This document shows, in pieces, positions 6,376 to 38,824 of a stretch of 64,000 nt of DNA. The DNA is from Terriglobia bacterium (GTDB lineage Bacteria; Acidobacteriota; Terriglobia; UBA7540), in the NCBI GenBank assembly GCA_035946735.1, contig DASYYZ010000024.1, positions 13,475 to 77,474 of the forward strand, in the 5' to 3' direction. The position numbers and the translations under genes were made by a program. Position 1 is the stretch's first letter, and each line of letters begins with the position of its first letter. A model generated the notes under the pieces. That model ran no database searches. It saw only the letters and a list, made by a program, of their open reading frames with translations, and was not told where the DNA came from.

Positions 6376-6423
6376 AAGGCCGCGTTCGAGGCGCACAGAC
6401 CTCGGGCGCGGCCTTTTTTTTTT
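6376..6423 (+). terminator. Rho-independent terminator after hsp20
   Basis: AAGGCCGCG ... CGCGGCCTT stem with an inner CGAGG/CCTCG stem, followed by a run of ~10 T. Confidence 0.6.
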
Positions 6424-9236: not shown

Positions 9237-12050
9237 TTATTCATAGCGCAGCGCCACCATGGGATCGACTCGAGACGCGCGGCGAGCCGGTACGTAGCCG
9301 GCAAATGCCGCCGCAGCCACCAGCAGCAACGCCGCGCCGGCGATGGTCAACGGATCGTTCGGCTTCAGCCCGAACAGCAGGCTTGAGATCAGGCGCGTCG
9401 CTTCGAGTGCCCCGAACACACCCAGGGTGATTCCAATCGCCACCAGCACCAGAGTCTCGCGCAGGACCATGCCAAGAATCTCAGCGCGGTTCGCGCCCAG
9501 CGCCATACGGATGCCGATCTCGCGGGTACGTTGCGAGGTGGCGAAGGCCATGATGCCGTAAACGCCCAGGCAGCCGAGCAGCGCAGCCAGCAAGCCGAAG
9601 AAACTGGTGAGGCGCGCGAAGAGGCGCTCCTGAAACAAGGTTTGATTGATCTGCTCAACCTGGCTCTTGACGTCGAAGAGCGCCAGGTTCGGGTCCGTGC
9701 CCTGAGAGACGCGACGCACGGCCGGCGCCAGCGCCATGGGATCGCCTGCGGTACGCACCTCGAAGTGCATGCCACCCAGCAACTTCACTTCCTGCAGGTA
9801 TGGAGTGTAAACGGTGGGAGGGACCTCTTGCCGAAGATCGCTGTATTTGGCGTCGCCCGCCACACCCACAATCTCGATATCGGCTTTGGTCTTTTGATCG
9901 CCAAAACCGAATCGCCTACCGATGGGGCTTCCGCTGCCCAGGTATTTGCGAACGAACTTTTGGTTCACCACTGCCACCTTGGGTGCTGCGGCCGCGTCGC
10001 CTTCGCCGATGCCGCGCCCGAGAATGATCGGCATGCCGAGGGTTTCAAAAAAAACCGGACCTACCCGGTTCCACCAGGCCTCGAGGCCGTCTCTCTTCTC
10101 ACCCGCCTTTGGCGTGTAGCCGAGAATACCGACCGAGTTGATGGCCTCGCCGTTGCCGATCAGCGTCAAGGCCGACAGAGTCACTGAGCGCACACCGGGC
10201 AACGCCTGGAGGCGCCGGGTAAACTCCTGGTAAAAATCCGCCAGACGCTGTTCCTTGTAGCCATCCTGAGTGGGGTCAACGCCGAAGAGGAGGAGGTTTC
10301 GTTCATTGAACCCCGCATCGACATTTTGGAGATTGGCCAGCGTGCGGACAAACAAGCCCGCGCCGACCAGCAGCAGAAGAGAGAGTCCCACTTGCGTGAC
10401 CACCAGCGTCTTGCCGAGCCCCAAACGCAAGCCGCGACGGCGCTCCTGCGCACCCGGCATTTTTCCTGCGCTTTCTTTAAGCGCGGGAGTGAGATCGACG
10501 CGGGTGCTTCGCAGTGCCGGCGAAAGCCCAAACAGAATGCCTGTAAGCAGCGAAACCGCCGCGGTGAAACCGAGCACCCCTGGATCAGGTGTCACGCTCA
10601 AGCTCACGGGATTGCGGCCGCTCGACATAAAGGCAACCAGAAGGTGCGTTCCCCAGAAGGCCAGGAGCAGCCCCAAAATACCGCCCATGGCGGCCAGCAG
10701 CACGCTCTCCGTCAGCAATTGCCGGACGAGCCGCGATCTTTTGCCGCCAATGGCCAGCCGTACGGCAATCTCCTTCTGGCGCGAAGTGCCGCGCGCCAGG
10801 AGAAGATTGGCAACGTTCGCGCACGCGATCAGCAGCACCAGTCCCACCACCGTCATCAGGACATACAGTGGCTTGGAGAATTCCCCGCGCAGCTCATCGA
10901 GGCCCTTGCTCCCGGGTTCCACTTCCAGGTGGGGAATGGTTTCCGGCTTAATGGTGGGTTTTACGTCCGGCGACATACTTTGCTGAAGCAATACGTCGAG
11001 TTGAGCGCGCGCCTGTTGTTCGCTCACGCCCGGCTTTAGGCGGCCCATGATGAGCAGCCACCACTGGTTGCGCGCCGCGAAGAGCGTTCCCGCAGGTTTT
11101 GCGGCGCCGCCCGGCGCGGGCTCGGGAGGCTCAGGTGACCACCGCGGCTCCACCTGTGGCTGGCTGTGAAGCGGCAGCCAGACTTCAACGGCGCGTCCGG
11201 GCTGCACGCCATAGAACTCGGGCGGGCTCACACCGACAATCGTTACGGGGACGCTGTTCACCGTGATCGTCCGCCCCAAAACGCCAGGGTCGCGCCCGAA
11301 ACGCCGCTCCCAGTAGCCATAACTGATAACCGCCGCGGGACCTGCGCCAATGCGGTCGTCATCGGGAGTGAGGGCACGGCCCAGGATGGGCTCAACGCCC
11401 AGCGTCGAGAAAAAAGTTCCCGAGACGAGTTCGCCCTCGGCGCGGCCCGGCACTCCTTTATAACCCACGTTCAAGTCGCTGCTGTTACCGGCCAGTGCCA
11501 ACACGTCCGAAAATACGTGATTGTGCACGCGGATCTGCTCATAGCCGAGATAAGCAAAGGACGTGCTGGTGTTGCGTCCGCCTTTATCTAAACCCCAATT
11601 GCCCGTGAGGCCGCTGATGATGCCGTTTGGCCACCCATGCGAGGCCCACTTCAGCAGCAGAAGCTGCTGCGGACTCTGAACGGGCAGCATCTTGAGCAGC
11701 ACCGCGTCAATCAAGCTGAAGATGGCCGTATTAGCGCCGATTCCGAGCGCGAGCGAGAGCACCGCAACGGCCGTGAATCCGGGACTGCGCCGCATGGCGC
11801 GTAGACCATAGCGCACGTCTTGACTCAGACGTTCCAGCAGGATCGATCCCCACATGGCTCGTGTCTCCTCCCGTTTCAGGCCCGGGTTGCCGAAGGCGCG
11901 CAGCGCGGCGTAACGAGCCTCGCTGGGCTGCATGCCGGCGGCGATGTTCTCGTTCGTCTTCATGTCGAGGTGGAAGCGCAGCTCGTCGTCGAGATCGTGC
12001 TCCTGGGTGGACCGTCCGAACAGTGAGCGTAATCGTTTCGTCAGTCGCAT
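9237..12050 (-). CDS. Duplicated MacB-like/FtsX ABC permease (ADOP family)
   Basis: Permease-prefix N-terminus (LDDELRFHLDMKTNENIAAGM.P.EARY.ALRAFGN). Two MacB-periplasmic plus FtsX halves. C-terminus ...YVPARRASRVDPMVALRYE. Confidence 0.9.
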   Translation of the reverse strand: MRLTKRLRSLFGRSTQEHDLDDELRFHLDMKTNENIAAGMQPSEARYAALRAFGNPGLKREETRAMWGSILLERLSQDVRYGLRAMRRSPGFTAVAVLSLALGIGANTAIFSLIDAVLLKMLPVQSPQQLLLLKWASHGWPNGIISGLTGNWGLDKGGRNTSTSFAYLGYEQIRVHNHVFSDVLALAGNSSDLNVGYKGVPGRAEGELVSGTFFSTLGVEPILGRALTPDDDRIGAGPAAVISYGYWERRFGRDPGVLGRTITVNSVPVTIVGVSPPEFYGVQPGRAVEVWLPLHSQPQVEPRWSPEPPEPAPGGAAKPAGTLFAARNQWWLLIMGRLKPGVSEQQARAQLDVLLQQSMSPDVKPTIKPETIPHLEVEPGSKGLDELRGEFSKPLYVLMTVVGLVLLIACANVANLLLARGTSRQKEIAVRLAIGGKRSRLVRQLLTESVLLAAMGGILGLLLAFWGTHLLVAFMSSGRNPVSLSVTPDPGVLGFTAAVSLLTGILFGLSPALRSTRVDLTPALKESAGKMPGAQERRRGLRLGLGKTLVVTQVGLSLLLLVGAGLFVRTLANLQNVDAGFNERNLLLFGVDPTQDGYKEQRLADFYQEFTRRLQALPGVRSVTLSALTLIGNGEAINSVGILGYTPKAGEKRDGLEAWWNRVGPVFFETLGMPIILGRGIGEGDAAAAPKVAVVNQKFVRKYLGSGSPIGRRFGFGDQKTKADIEIVGVAGDAKYSDLRQEVPPTVYTPYLQEVKLLGGMHFEVRTAGDPMALAPAVRRVSQGTDPNLALFDVKSQVEQINQTLFQERLFARLTSFFGLLAALLGCLGVYGIMAFATSQRTREIGIRMALGANRAEILGMVLRETLVLVAIGITLGVFGALEATRLISSLLFGLKPNDPLTIAGAALLLVAAAAFAGYVPARRASRVDPMVALRYE

Positions 12051-35759: not shown

Positions 35760-36002
35760 ATGCCAAAGATTCAGTGGGAACGACTCCCCAGAGAAAGGTG
35801 GGCTCACCTTCGCGACCGCGCCCAGCAGCGGGAGATCTCCGAGGAAGACCTGTTTGAACTTGCGGAGTGGAAAGCTCAAGACCCCGACGTGCCCGACGCG
35901 GACTGGTACAAGGATTTCGGAACTTTTAAACTGTGTGGTACGGGGAGATATCCGAGCACGTTCCTTCTGGCGGGTCAGGCCGCGCGCGGCAAGCGCTTGT
36001 GA
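35760..36002 (+). CDS. Small hypothetical protein, possible partner of the RHH protein
   Basis: It starts 4 nt after the RHH stop. 80 aa, no family recognised. Confidence 0.5.
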   Translation: MPKIQWERLPRERWAHLRDRAQQREISEEDLFELAEWKAQDPDVPDADWYKDFGTFKLCGTGRYPSTFLLAGQAARGKRL

Positions 36003-36173
36003 GGGCACGTCAGTCAGGTTTGGCGTGATGCAGGCGGATGATGCACATCGAATCCTGATTTCGCGTCCAAAACTCGCCTCCCGGCGGTCCGGTGACTCGC
36101 ACACGCGGCAGCTCGAGGGGAGACGTAGGCGCCACCCGCATGACGCTAGCGGTAGTTGCCGACATTTCCCTTG

Positions 36174-36202
36174 TTTACAAGCGGCCAAATTTGTTCTACT
36201 GT
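36174..36202 (+). promoter_or_regulatory. Candidate sigma70-like promoter for the small-HTH gene array
   Basis: TTTACA, 17 nt spacer, TACTGT, about 12 nt upstream of the first possible start at 36214 (or 24 nt from the alternative ATG at 36226). Confidence 0.25.
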
Positions 36203-36213
36203 GCCCATGCTGG

Positions 36214-36471
36214 ATGTCGATCACTATGGAAAACGAGCTATTGGAGAACATCAACAGAAACCTTGAGGTGATTATTGGCTTGCTGCTCCGCAGCCTGCCC
36301 GATTCAGACGCCGCACACCTTCGCGGGCGCATTGTCATGCTGAATGACATGGGCATGCGGCCGAAGGATATCGCAAGAGTGTTGGGTAAATCAACGAATC
36401 ACATTAACGTTGAATTGTCGCGGAGCCGCAAGCCAAAGAGGAAGAGAGGGGTAGAGCGTGAAGAAGGCTAG
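36214..36471 (+). CDS. Small HTH protein, paralog 1 of 3
   Basis: LENINRNLEVIIGLLLRSL ... RIVMLNDMGMRPKDIARVLGKSTNHINVELSRSRKPKRK. The start may instead be the ATG at 36226. Confidence 0.6.
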   Translation: MSITMENELLENINRNLEVIIGLLLRSLPDSDAAHLRGRIVMLNDMGMRPKDIARVLGKSTNHINVELSRSRKPKRKRGVEREEG

Positions 36472-36655
36472 CAGCACTGAAGAGCTTCTTGTGGCCCAAT
36501 CAGAACTCATTCGAGACATGTTTATTACCGAGTTAACGATCGCGGGCGTACCGCAACGAGAGATCGCGAAAGTCGTGCGGGTCAACCTGAACCGCGTAAA
36601 TCGCATCGCCAAGTCCTTGCGCAAACGAAACAAAAATAGTAACGGAGAGAACTAA
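36458..36655 (+). CDS. Small HTH protein, paralog 2 of 3 (shorter)
   Basis: GTG start with a GAGAGGGG SD, overlapping the previous gene by 14 nt. ...ELTIAGVPQREIAKVVRVNLNRVNRIAKSLRKRNK. Confidence 0.55.
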   Translation: MKKASSTEELLVAQSELIRDMFITELTIAGVPQREIAKVVRVNLNRVNRIAKSLRKRNKNSNGEN

Positions 36656-36899
36656 ATGGCCGAAGCGGACGTGCTCGAAAAACAGTCGCGCAAGTTGAAC
36701 GTCGTCATCGGACTCCTACTGCGCGTACTGTTAAAGGACGAGGATTTCACACAAAGGAAGAGGAAAGGGACCGGTGAGTTGGCCGTGTACTTGAAGCGAC
36801 ACGGTCTTGAGTACCCAAGACATTGCGGCTATACTCGATTCCCCAGTCGCAAGCGTGCGCGAGTTGGTCGGCCGGAGCAGCCGAAGAAAGAAGCCGTGA
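36656..36899 (+). pseudogene. Small HTH protein, paralog 3 of 3, interrupted by a 1-nt frame change near 36809
   Basis: Frame 0 gives LEKQSRKLNVVIGLLLRVL...ELAVYLKRHGL. The +1 frame from 36810 gives STQDIAAILDSPVASVRELVGRSSRRKKP*. Joined, they align colinearly with paralog 1 (80 vs 81 aa). The track ORF 36656..36940 continues in the wrong frame. Confidence 0.55.
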
Positions 36900-36943
36900 T
36901 CGTACGCGTGCTGGTGAACCCCTTGCGCCTAAAACCTTAGAGC

Positions 36944-37468
36944 ATGATAGGCGACCGGAAGCCACAATCATATGACTTCCACGCGGACATTCGCCTGCAT
37001 AAGGCAGAGAGCGAAGGACGGCAGCAAATGAGGGCACGGAATGGCAAGGAAGAACCCTACCAGCAAATATTGCACCGGCTCGCGCATATCGAACATAAGG
37101 TGGATTCGATAGATGAGACGAACGCGTTTGCGCTGCGGGCGGAGGCAGAAAAGCATCAGGGGACAGTCAAGAAGATTTTCAAGAAGAGTAAGCGGAGGGC
37201 GCAGGTCTATCTGGCTGCCGATGGTACTTGGGGCGTGGCTGAGATCGCCAAGCATCTCAGAATGAAACAACCAAATGTGAGCCCAGACCTAAGAATCCTG
37301 AAAGAGGAAGGGCTTCTGGAGCTTATAGACGCCTCTGGTAGGCAGGATTTCTGGGCGAAAAAGACAATCGACAAAACGCTCCGCATCTCCAAGTATCTCT
37401 GTGAGGAATACAGCCTAAAGCCTGACGGGCGCCCTAACAGTGAAGGCAAAGACAAGAGGAGGAAATAG
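36944..37468 (+). CDS. Winged-HTH (ArsR/MarR-like) protein
   Basis: RAQVYLAADGTWGVAEIAKHLRMKQPNVSPDLRILKEEGLLELIDASGRQDFWAKK. The start may be the ATG at 37028 (MRARNG). Confidence 0.6.
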   Translation: MIGDRKPQSYDFHADIRLHKAESEGRQQMRARNGKEEPYQQILHRLAHIEHKVDSIDETNAFALRAEAEKHQGTVKKIFKKSKRRAQVYLAADGTWGVAEIAKHLRMKQPNVSPDLRILKEEGLLELIDASGRQDFWAKKTIDKTLRISKYLCEEYSLKPDGRPNSEGKDKRRK

Positions 37469-37489
37469 CTGGATGGCGCACAAATCGGA

Positions 37490-38277
37490 ATGATCTTCTC
37501 AATCCAAACTTACCTAGAAGACTATTTCAATCGACGTGGGCTTGGCGATCCCGACCAGTACGCCGTCGCGCTGGCGAGGTTGTATGACCGCGAGCGTCAC
37601 GGCACGACTGCGCCCGTCTTTCTGGCCGCGATGAAGCGCATTAGGACGATTTTTTATAAGCGCAACAATCATATCGAGCGTGACAAGTTTGACCGGAAGA
37701 TGCTGACCCTCTTAGACAGTAAGTTTAAAAAAAAAGACTATTCTTCGTGTCAAAGGCAGTCGCCAAAAGAGTTGAAGCCTCCGGCAGCAGCCTAGCGAAA
37801 TGTCCTCGCGTTACCATCCGCAAATTCCTTGAAGAGTTCAAGAGCACAATCGAGGCCGAGGCAGTAAATTCGTTTTGGGAATCGCGAACCGAGGGAAAGC
37901 TGAAGAAACGTCCGGAGAAGCACGGGCAGGAACTTCTCGGTGTGTTCGCTCGTGCAAAACTGGCAGCAAGGGGATCCGCAATCCGAGAGGCGGTGTCTGG
38001 CATTGGATTCGTGGATGTGCTTGTGACGTTCTCATCTGGACTGCTTCACGTGATCGAATTGAAAATGTTGAAGGGCAAGGATATCCCGGGGCCAGCACAA
38101 CTGGCGATATACATGAACCACAAGCGGCGACCGGAGGGCTGGCTTGTCTTCTTTGATGCACGTAAACCGAATGGGAGGCCGGCCGTCCCAACCGTGTTCA
38201 AGAAACCGTCTGGAACGATAAGAGCTGTTCTGATTGACATCAATCCGTTAGCGCCGAGTAGACAGAGCGAGGCATGA
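37490..38277 (+). CDS. PD-(D/E)xK (RecB-like, QxxxY) nuclease-fold protein encoded in two frames joined at an A9 tract
   Basis: ORF 37490..37795 and the downstream frame, which opens exactly at 37729 inside AAAAAAAAA (37727-37735). The downstream part carries GFVDVLV...LLHVIELKMLKG...PAQLAIYM (D, ExK, QxxxY). Confidence 0.55.
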
Positions 38278-38371
38278 TCTCTTTTTAAGCAAGGTAGCGG
38301 AGACCGCGCTTGCCGGTCTGCGGCATTTCAAACCGCAAACAGCCGCAGATCCAAGGGTCCAGCCAGAGCGC

Positions 38372-38824
38372 TCACTCCACGGGCACTTCCTTCAGGACGT
38401 CGTCCCAATGCTTTTCGGTCAGTTCCCAGCGTCGCTTTTCCTCGCGGTCGTGTGACGCTTTATCGGGATAAAGCGAGCGCATAATGTCCGGCTGGCGCTT
38501 ATCGGCTTCATCGAGTGCCGCCCAGTCACGCCACACCATTACCACTTTGTAGTCCCAGGCGGGGCTCTCCGCGTGAAACCTTCGCTCATAAATCTTATCG
38601 CTCAGGATCAAGCCCTCTTTCTTCAGTTGTTGCAGGATGGGGCGGTGGTTCTTCAGGTAGAGCGACAACCACTCCGACGGGCCACCCGGCGTCATGCCGC
38701 CGGGCACGATTTTGTAATAGTACTCAATCGTGACGGGGGCGCCAGCTGCTTGGCCGGCGCTCCTCGAGGCAAACGCTCCCAAGCTGAGAATGAGGATCGT
38801 CGATACGAGCAGGGCCTTCTTCAT
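38372..38824 (-). CDS. Secreted hypothetical protein
   Basis: Internal ATG at 38824 gives the signal peptide MKKALLVSTILILSLGAFASRSAGQ. No family recognised. Confidence 0.65.
   Translation of the reverse strand: MKKALLVSTILILSLGAFASRSAGQAAGAPVTIEYYYKIVPGGMTPGGPSEWLSLYLKNHRPILQQLKKEGLILSDKIYERRFHAESPAWDYKVVMVWRDWAALDEADKRQPDIMRSLYPDKASHDREEKRRWELTEKHWDDVLKEVPVE

Follow-up and report, generated by a model that had tools for sequence, protein, structure and literature searches.

The window analysed here is a 64,000-nucleotide (nt) stretch of DNA from a Terriglobia bacterium (Acidobacteriota; GenBank assembly GCA_035946735.1, contig DASYYZ010000024.1, positions 13,475 to 77,474 of the forward strand), which carries on its plus strand a gene for a predicted nuclease of the DUF8371 family whose coding sequence is divided between two reading frames at a run of nine adenines (A9). 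The N-terminal part (37490..37735; MIFSIQ...SKFKKK) lies in frame 0 and begins at a conserved ATG-ATC start. It belongs to an open reading frame (ORF) of 101 amino acids (aa) from ATG 37490, which crosses the run as ...SKF KKK D and closes with a tail, DYSSCQRQSPKELKPPAAA, and a TAG stop of conserved position at 37793-37795 (tail and stop together 37736..37795). The slip site, TTT AAA AAA AAA (37724..37735), is made up of TTT at 37724-37726 and A9 at 37727-37735, and holds an A_AAA_AAA heptamer (37729-37735) in register with the frame-0 codons AAA AAA, following the X_XXY_YYZ pattern of −1 frameshift sites. The −1 frame has TAA stops at 37720-22 and 37726-28 and is open from 37729 to a TGA at 38275-77 (182 aa). 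The C-terminal part, read in this frame (37735..38277; RLFFVSK...), comprises the rest of a helical domain and the PD-(D/E)xK nuclease core, including the GFVD, VIELK, and QLAIY motifs and the core residues D176 (38014-16), E190 (38056-58), and K192 (38062-64). The third (+1) frame is closed by a TGA at 37773..37775, 40 nt past the tract, again at a conserved position.

If frame 0 is followed through the run and the reading then shifts back by one base, the conceptual fusion is 262 aa long, with the junction FKKK-RLFFVSK. A preliminary description of this DNA had reported an A9 run joining two frames, with nuclease-core residues in the −1 frame, and both points hold: the run and the two ORFs are found at the coordinates it gave, and the D, E-x-K, Q, and Y residues are invariant in the family. 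Its 101-aa product was likewise correct, whereas the fusion it put at ~265 aa is 262 aa long. It had also supposed that either A10 or A8 would restore a single ORF, which is right for A10 and wrong for A8; by arithmetic, fusion at the DNA level needs A10 (one A more) or A7 (two fewer), and the relatives agree, with A10 and A7 in frame and A8 placing the C-terminal part in the +1 frame. The A9 run is the only one of three homopolymers of at least 8 nt in the window that lies within coding sequence.

We are fairly confident that the A9 run acts as a programmed recoding site within one gene, giving a 101-aa and a 262-aa product. The support for this reading comes from the conserved site, purifying selection acting on both parts, the switch of frame at the run, the lack of an internal start, and the stops held in the other frames.

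Using the conceptual fusion as the query, a search of 5.8 billion proteins returned 129 relatives, a mix of single proteins of 255-267 aa and C-terminal pieces of 144-228 aa called by gene finders. DNA was retrieved for 25 genome and 80 metagenome loci, and the N- and C-terminal parts were placed by tblastn, leaving 97 sequences in which both parts were present (96 related loci and the window). The exact TTT-AAAAAAAAA site with the C-terminal part in the −1 frame was present in 73 of the 97 (64 distinct sequences), at DNA identities to the window of 65-87%. A minority encode both parts in frame, with A10 (12 loci), A9 (4), A8 (2), A7 (2), or no run (2), and there are two single exceptions: past the run, an A8 locus continues in the +1 frame and an A10 locus in the −1 frame. 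In the close clade, the genes for three full-length proteins (P0002, P0003, and P0006) all have an uninterrupted A10; an identical P0006 protein is specified by 24 contigs of various samples, and direct reading of the tract in four of them gave A10. In the 64 distinct sequences TTT-AAA-AAA-AAA is unchanged, whereas elsewhere in the same genes AAA makes up 40% of lysine codons and TTT 43% of phenylalanine codons. Given that the four codons of the site never vary despite free codon use elsewhere, the selected object is the nucleotide run, beyond the lysines it encodes; by this codon use, and as the only such homopolymer within coding sequence in the window, the tract is far above chance expectation. 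The phenylalanine codon before the run is TTT in 64/64 distinct A9/−1 sequences and either TTT or TTC in the in-frame A10 relatives; with TTT at this place, a −1-frame TAA arises where the run begins.

The tract was also compared among close strains. The public soil metagenome runs with the locus were examined as assembled contigs, which show the majority tract length only, and six independent contigs from three studies (X1, X3, X4, X5, X6, and X9) carry A9 without difference. An insertion/deletion (indel) ~900 nt upstream served as a control: an extra C near 36814 is present in the window and X1 and missing in X3 and X5. Given that this sporadic indel is polymorphic among near-identical strains while A9 is not, we regard A9 as stable in the organism of the window. 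These comparisons leave very little room for a sequencing or assembly error, or for a recently inactivated pseudogene, which we rank as the least credible of the explanations considered. Homopolymers are indeed error-prone, notably in Nanopore-based metagenome-assembled genomes, some of the relatives being among these, and in the window assembly a one-base insertion affects another gene of this operon. Against this, independent Illumina assemblies agree on A9, contigs with names of one Joint Genome Institute (JGI) project series resolve both A10 (L026/L027) and A9 (L041, L053), and the state is shared by 73/97 sequences with intact ORFs and a ratio of nonsynonymous to synonymous divergence (dN/dS) of 0.1.

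Selection was assessed by pairwise dN/dS on 51 distinct A9 sequences. The ratio was 0.10 for the N-terminal part in frame 0 and 0.12 for the C-terminal part in frame −1, at a median dS of 1.6-1.8, where synonymous sites are saturated, and the −1 ORF was open in all A9 relatives compared. Column conservation gave the same division of frames, with the least conserved codon position following the frame-0 phase up to the run (frame-0 wobble) and the −1 phase from the first nucleotide past it. By these substitution patterns, both parts are under strong purifying selection.

The periodicity also bears on whether the locus holds two genes, a 101-aa gene and a ~176-aa gene that is independently initiated or re-initiated from the GTG at 37747. 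Gene callers do report C-terminal proteins of 144-228 aa for many relatives, and the GTG exists in the window; in most relatives, however, it is GTC, and the distance from the run to the first −1-frame ATG, GTG, or TTG varies between 3 and 282 nt, so that a start there would often cost invariant residues (the largest group by start position, 13 sequences, has its first −1-frame start at 165 nt). Internal initiation of the C-terminal part was therefore rejected for want of a conserved start codon. Moreover, the RLFFVSK segment between the tract and 37747 is conserved, −1-frame periodicity begins at the tract, the in-frame relatives are single proteins of 255-267 aa, and in the AlphaFold2 model of such a relative a single chain continues unbroken past the site, a helix (residues 64-82) ending in KKK. 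We regard the two-gene explanation as very improbable.

A further line of evidence for recoding comes from the stops in the frames that do not encode the nuclease. Among the 64 distinct A9 sequences, the frame-0 stop falls 60 or 63 nt past the run in 61, and a third-frame TGA ends 40 nt past it in 60. Both depend on particular codons of the −1 frame. Codon 12, which makes the +1-frame TGA, is GTT or ATT in 51/51 sequences (usage elsewhere 25% and 43%), and codon 19, which makes the frame-0 stop, is CTA, TTA, or GTA in 39/51, with the next codon giving the stop in the others; CTA and TTA together account for 15% of leucine codons elsewhere. Stops in both other frames thus appear to be held by disfavoured synonymous codons. 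Synonymous divergence over the 20 codons after the run is 0.79 versus 1.76 in the rest of the gene, and the frame-0 tail, at 51% identity, exceeds off-frame translations taken from further along the gene (36%). Our reading of the policed stops and the conserved tail is that the non-productive frames are probably translated by ribosomes and the short product would be real. The +1-frame constraint would fit a mixed mRNA population (A8, A9, A10, and A11) and is suggestive only, the more so as the nucleotide behind it also encodes a frame-0 leucine, which weakens the argument from this frame. Separately, we noted that −1-frame codon 8 ([GA]TC) has an unchanging third position in 50/51 sequences; this makes no stop in any frame and only keeps a frame-0 serine, a pattern suggestive of dual coding or of some other constraint on the nucleotides.

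A maximum-likelihood tree of 79 distinct conceptual proteins separated the family into two clades with 100/100 support. Clade I, which takes in Acidobacteriota and a Udaeobacter, comprises 61 rows: 56 A9/−1, 3 A10, 1 A7, and 1 A8, the variants being isolated tips. Since A9/−1 extends across clade I with the variants nested inside it, the split state is taken to be ancestral there and to have been kept through deep divergence. The same distribution is relevant to phase variation at the DNA level, in which replication slippage would toggle the nuclease between OFF (A9) and ON (A10 or A7) in subpopulations. Homopolymers of 9-10 nt are hypermutable, and restriction-type nucleases are typical of phase-variable genes (mentioned in PMC3711429). 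Variants of A10 (L001, L026/27, L028, P0002, P0003, and P0006), A7, and A8 are scattered through the A9 clade, as such a switch would have it; variant tips amount to 5/61 rows of the clade I tree, and in-frame variants to ~10-15% of protein matches. Tract length, as the majority state seen in contigs, is nevertheless constant per lineage, with A9 in the six assemblies of the window's strain and A10 on the 24 P0006 contigs. A mutational switch should scatter lengths, whereas the exact A9 is kept in 64 distinct sequences at saturated dS, and A8 would be expected as often as A10, whereas the out-of-frame A8 state was met once. The supposedly OFF C-terminal part is under the same purifying selection as the N-terminal part, and stops are policed in both non-productive frames. 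Phase variation is on this evidence clearly unlikely, although it fares better than an error or a pair of genes.

Clade II differs in polarity. Its 18 rows come from Acidobacteriota, Binatota, Verrucomicrobiota, Chloroflexota, and Proteobacteria, and encode the protein in frame across a pure run of A8-A10 that lies in varying codon registers (TTT AAA AAA AAA GCC; CCA AAA AAA AAA GGC; CAA AAA AAA AAT). After six further loci were added (n = 19 in-frame genes with a run), a −1-frame stop was found 3-17 nt past the run in 17/19, at a median distance of 8 nt versus 81 nt for the +1 frame (Wilcoxon p = 5e-4; binomial p ~6e-9 against a generous expectation of 25%). In the in-frame genes without a run (L014, L103, and L115) the first −1 stop is 46-77 nt away. 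Clade II would therefore have the dnaX arrangement, with the long product as the default and a truncated one made by a −1 event on the run, and the two clades appear, from these frame and stop patterns, to make the same two products with opposite defaults.

In the gene of the window, faithful copying and decoding would yield the 101-aa protein, consisting of the first four helices of the N-terminal domain and a 19-aa tail, and a one-base slip on the run would yield the 262-aa full-length DUF8371 protein (FKKK-RLFFVSK) with its PD-(D/E)xK domain. The slip would most likely be the addition by RNA polymerase of one non-templated A, giving an A10 mRNA; a −1 slide of the ribosome on A_AAA_AAA may be a contributor or an alternative, the protein being identical by either route. 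In this way the gene would set the ratio of the short protein to the nuclease.

The preliminary description had proposed a classic −1 ribosomal frameshift, perhaps with a hairpin downstream, alongside sequencing error and a decayed or phase-variable gene as other options. The programmed option is supported and sequencing error is rejected; decay and fast phase variation are argued against by the retention of A9 and a dN/dS of ~0.1, and the check it suggested, tract length in related strains, returned A9 in the six assemblies and in the 73 of 97 sequences. As to the ribosomal part, the heptamer is in register as described, and no hairpin is conserved: RNAalifold gave an empty consensus for 51 distinct sequences from 120 nt before to ~120 nt past the tract. 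Similarly, no Shine-Dalgarno-like stimulator (GGAGG-like) is conserved in the 60 nt upstream, where variation follows the frame-0 codons. Some known −1 frameshift sites function without stimulators, and the missing structure lowers the ribosomal claim only. With no structure upstream or downstream, the run alone would be the signal. Given the lack of a conserved structure or Shine-Dalgarno-like element, the invariance of nine A's and the TTT where a heptamer needs only seven, and the retention of the clade II run regardless of codon register, we favour transcriptional slippage as the likelier mechanism within the recoding reading, and the two may act together. As in genes assigned to transcriptional slippage, an A run of at least 8-9 nt sits at the frame junction, in a conserved arrangement with both parts under selection.

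Published measurements show what runs of this length can do. In E. coli, an A9 cassette gave 40% frameshift product, compared with 10% for A7 and 63% for A11, and two-ORF dnaX genes, most with A10, have been ascribed to transcriptional realignment (PMC3711429). In Thermus thermophilus, slippage at the A9 run of dnaX diverts ~50% of the output to the shorter form, and in a large share of bacterial genomes slippery runs show signs of being selected against from a length of 9 nt (PMC1088944).

RNA data were available as assembled, low-depth metatranscriptome contigs, most of which do not span the tract and in which minority variants are hidden. The operon and the C-terminal part are transcribed in soil and peat. 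One RNA contig (X22), 100% identical to L041, spans the junction between the upstream winged-helix gene and the nuclease gene; another (X24), from a 95% relative, shows transcription through the run and reads A9, as do X25 and X26; and two (X29 and X30) show the C-terminal part transcribed in peat at a depth of 20. A single 251-nt metatranscriptome contig (X23), 98% identical to L041 (4181-4382), carries A7, which fuses the frames, and one of its ends consists of 51 nt of unrelated sequence. Slipped RNA, strain variation, and chimera formation could each account for this contig, and we use it neither for nor against the recoding reading.

Several observations weigh against the recoding reading or parts of it. 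The contigs from RNA runs read A9 in three cases and A7 in one, as assembled majority states only. Some 10-15% of clade members carry A10 and are in frame, so that length changes at the DNA level occur and are tolerated, as phase variation would predict as well. In clade II the close stop is found only in the −1 frame, which fits a purely ribosomal −1 shift as well and so tells against the RNA polymerase part of the reading. Lastly, we infer the slippage itself, its efficiency, the step responsible, and the role of the short form.

In precomputed annotation, nearly all relatives, including the 176-aa ORF of the window, are assigned to Pfam PF28130 (DUF8371), and a literature search found no papers on PF28130 or DUF8371. 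Searches of the local Pfam copy (which lacks the DUF8371 model), NCBIfam, PADLOC, and PHROGs gave no significant match for the nuclease (Pfam NucS_C, E = 0.06), nor did a sequence profile search of the PDB with the nuclease. For the in-frame relative P0001 (84% identical), AlphaFold2 predicts a single continuous chain with a predicted local distance difference test (pLDDT) score of 89.8, in which the helix at 64-82 is followed by a short loop, three helices, and the nuclease core. Foldseek matched the C-terminal domain of the model to the nuclease domain of NucS/EndoMS (2vld, 5gke) with a probability of 0.99-1.0 over ~90 residues, with further matches to McrC, the Cas4-like ACE1, and viral Mrr-like restriction nucleases; the helical N-terminal domain (1-129) had no Foldseek structural match. 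Residues D176, E190, K192, Q204, and Y208 are invariant (54 sequences for D176, E190, and K192). The product is thus modelled as a helical N-terminal domain joined to a NucS/Mrr-like PD-(D/E)xK nuclease, with predicted activity. Like NucS/EndoMS and Mrr-like nucleases, it has the C-terminal domain fold (in the model) and the D, E-x-K, Q, and Y residues, with no sequence match to NucS above threshold. An exhaustive search of 1.84 billion cluster representatives found 322 relatives, 103 of them at E<1e-10 and most of 250-270 aa. In distant relatives (P0203-P0267) the nuclease domain lies at the C-terminus of proteins of ~700-900 aa.

The closest parallels are the dnaX genes with poly-A runs, that of T. 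thermophilus and those with two ORFs described by Antonov et al. 2013 (PMC1088944; PMC3711429). These likewise have 9-10 sense-strand A's within the coding region, short and long products with a common N-terminus, stops of the alternative frame close behind the run, and both polarities among homologues (in frame and truncated by the slip, or split and made long by it). The poly-A frameshift genes mxiE and spa13 of Shigella and the 'magnesium chelatase' genes (PMC1088944, PMC5009743, PMC3711429) resemble the DUF8371 gene in that the long functional product needs a slip joining overlapping ORFs, and in having fused single-ORF homologues in other genomes. The proteins differ in both comparisons; dnaX encodes a clamp-loader subunit, whereas here we have an uncharacterised nuclease whose recoding is predicted from sequence. 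The DUF8371 gene further differs from dnaX in its frame-0 tail of 19 aa, which is partly conserved. With the −1 frameshifting of E. coli dnaX and of the insertion sequences IS3 and IS1 (A_AAA_AAG or A_AAA_AAA) the gene shares the in-register heptamer and an ORF that continues in the −1 frame, and the immediate −1 stop after the site in E. coli dnaX recurs in the sister clade; unlike those systems, it has no conserved hairpin, pseudoknot, or Shine-Dalgarno-like stimulator, and its conservation exceeds the heptamer.

Recoding sites of this type are well known, but we are aware of no report of one in DUF8371, in either polarity; the family, whose function is uncharacterised, would add a well-supported and evolutionarily deep case of poly-A recoding. 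Annotation pipelines call two genes or a truncated 176-aa nuclease where there is probably one gene read two ways, and the same would hold for dozens of Acidobacteria and other soil bacteria, so a curation rule for DUF8371 genes would be to fuse the ORFs across the A run. The family also offers natural controls, namely split A9 genes, in-frame A10 genes with an immediate −1 stop, and tract-less genes without that stop, which suit questions on how slippage efficiency depends on run length and context in non-model bacteria and on why a nuclease would need a nuclease-less N-terminal fragment in fixed proportion.

A broader and rather unlikely proposal, which we put forward tentatively, is that the DUF8371 family is built around the poly-A run as a ratio device of two polarities, with the short form a partner of the nuclease (an inhibitor or an assembly subunit), in a one-gene 'toxin plus antidote' or defence module. 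The hints are the partly conserved tail, beyond what the −1 frame imposes, the selected stops in the non-productive frames, and the constant company of helix-turn-helix (HTH) regulators on an island of low guanine-plus-cytosine (GC) content in several phyla. If the proposal were true, the ratio could shift when transcription is disturbed, for instance by changes in nucleotide pools or by phage takeover of the polymerase, and release nuclease activity.

Upstream of the nuclease gene, on the same strand, lies an ArsR-like winged-helix gene (37028..37468; Pfam HTH_5, E = 3.6e-6), which is a constant partner preceding the nuclease gene (present in 89 related loci), usually with two to five small HTH genes as well. 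Its ORF can be extended to 36944 (174 aa), and relatives of 147-148 aa start at the equivalent of 37028, so the gene probably starts at the ATG at 37028 (146 aa) and the ORF from 36944 is likely over-extended. Three small HTH genes of the same operon lie further upstream at ~36226-36471, 36458-36655, and 36656-36940 (36226..36940, plus strand). The third is frameshifted in the window, where CCC stands for the CC of L031, L110, and L111 and puts the HTH half out of frame; the extra C is a strain- or assembly-specific frameshift.

Between the winged-helix and nuclease genes, a six-codon mini-ORF (37473..37493, plus strand) ends in an ATGA overlap with the start at 37490, which the preliminary description took as a sign of translational coupling. 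The mini-ORF is present in the window; it is not conserved, most relatives having no start codon for it, and it is judged to be a chance occurrence. Coupling was rejected for this reason, and the ATGA 'overlap' is simply where the nuclease gene begins, at its conserved Met-Ile codons (ATG ATC/T).

The block of HTH and nuclease genes (36000-38400) has a GC content of 52%, compared with 60-63% around it. Homology to relatives stops 8 nt past the nuclease stop (38285), and the neighbours differ in each genome. A search around the island for terminal repeats or att-like sites gave nothing convincing, and no integrase was found. The block has the look of a small cassette of regulators and a nuclease that moves horizontally; it may be a module of a restriction-like or addiction-like kind, a functional reading that is our inference only. 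The two other homopolymers of the window, T10 (6414-6423) and A8 (10047-10054), are noncoding and each directly follow a GC-rich hairpin; both are probable intrinsic terminators, the A8 one belonging to the minus strand.

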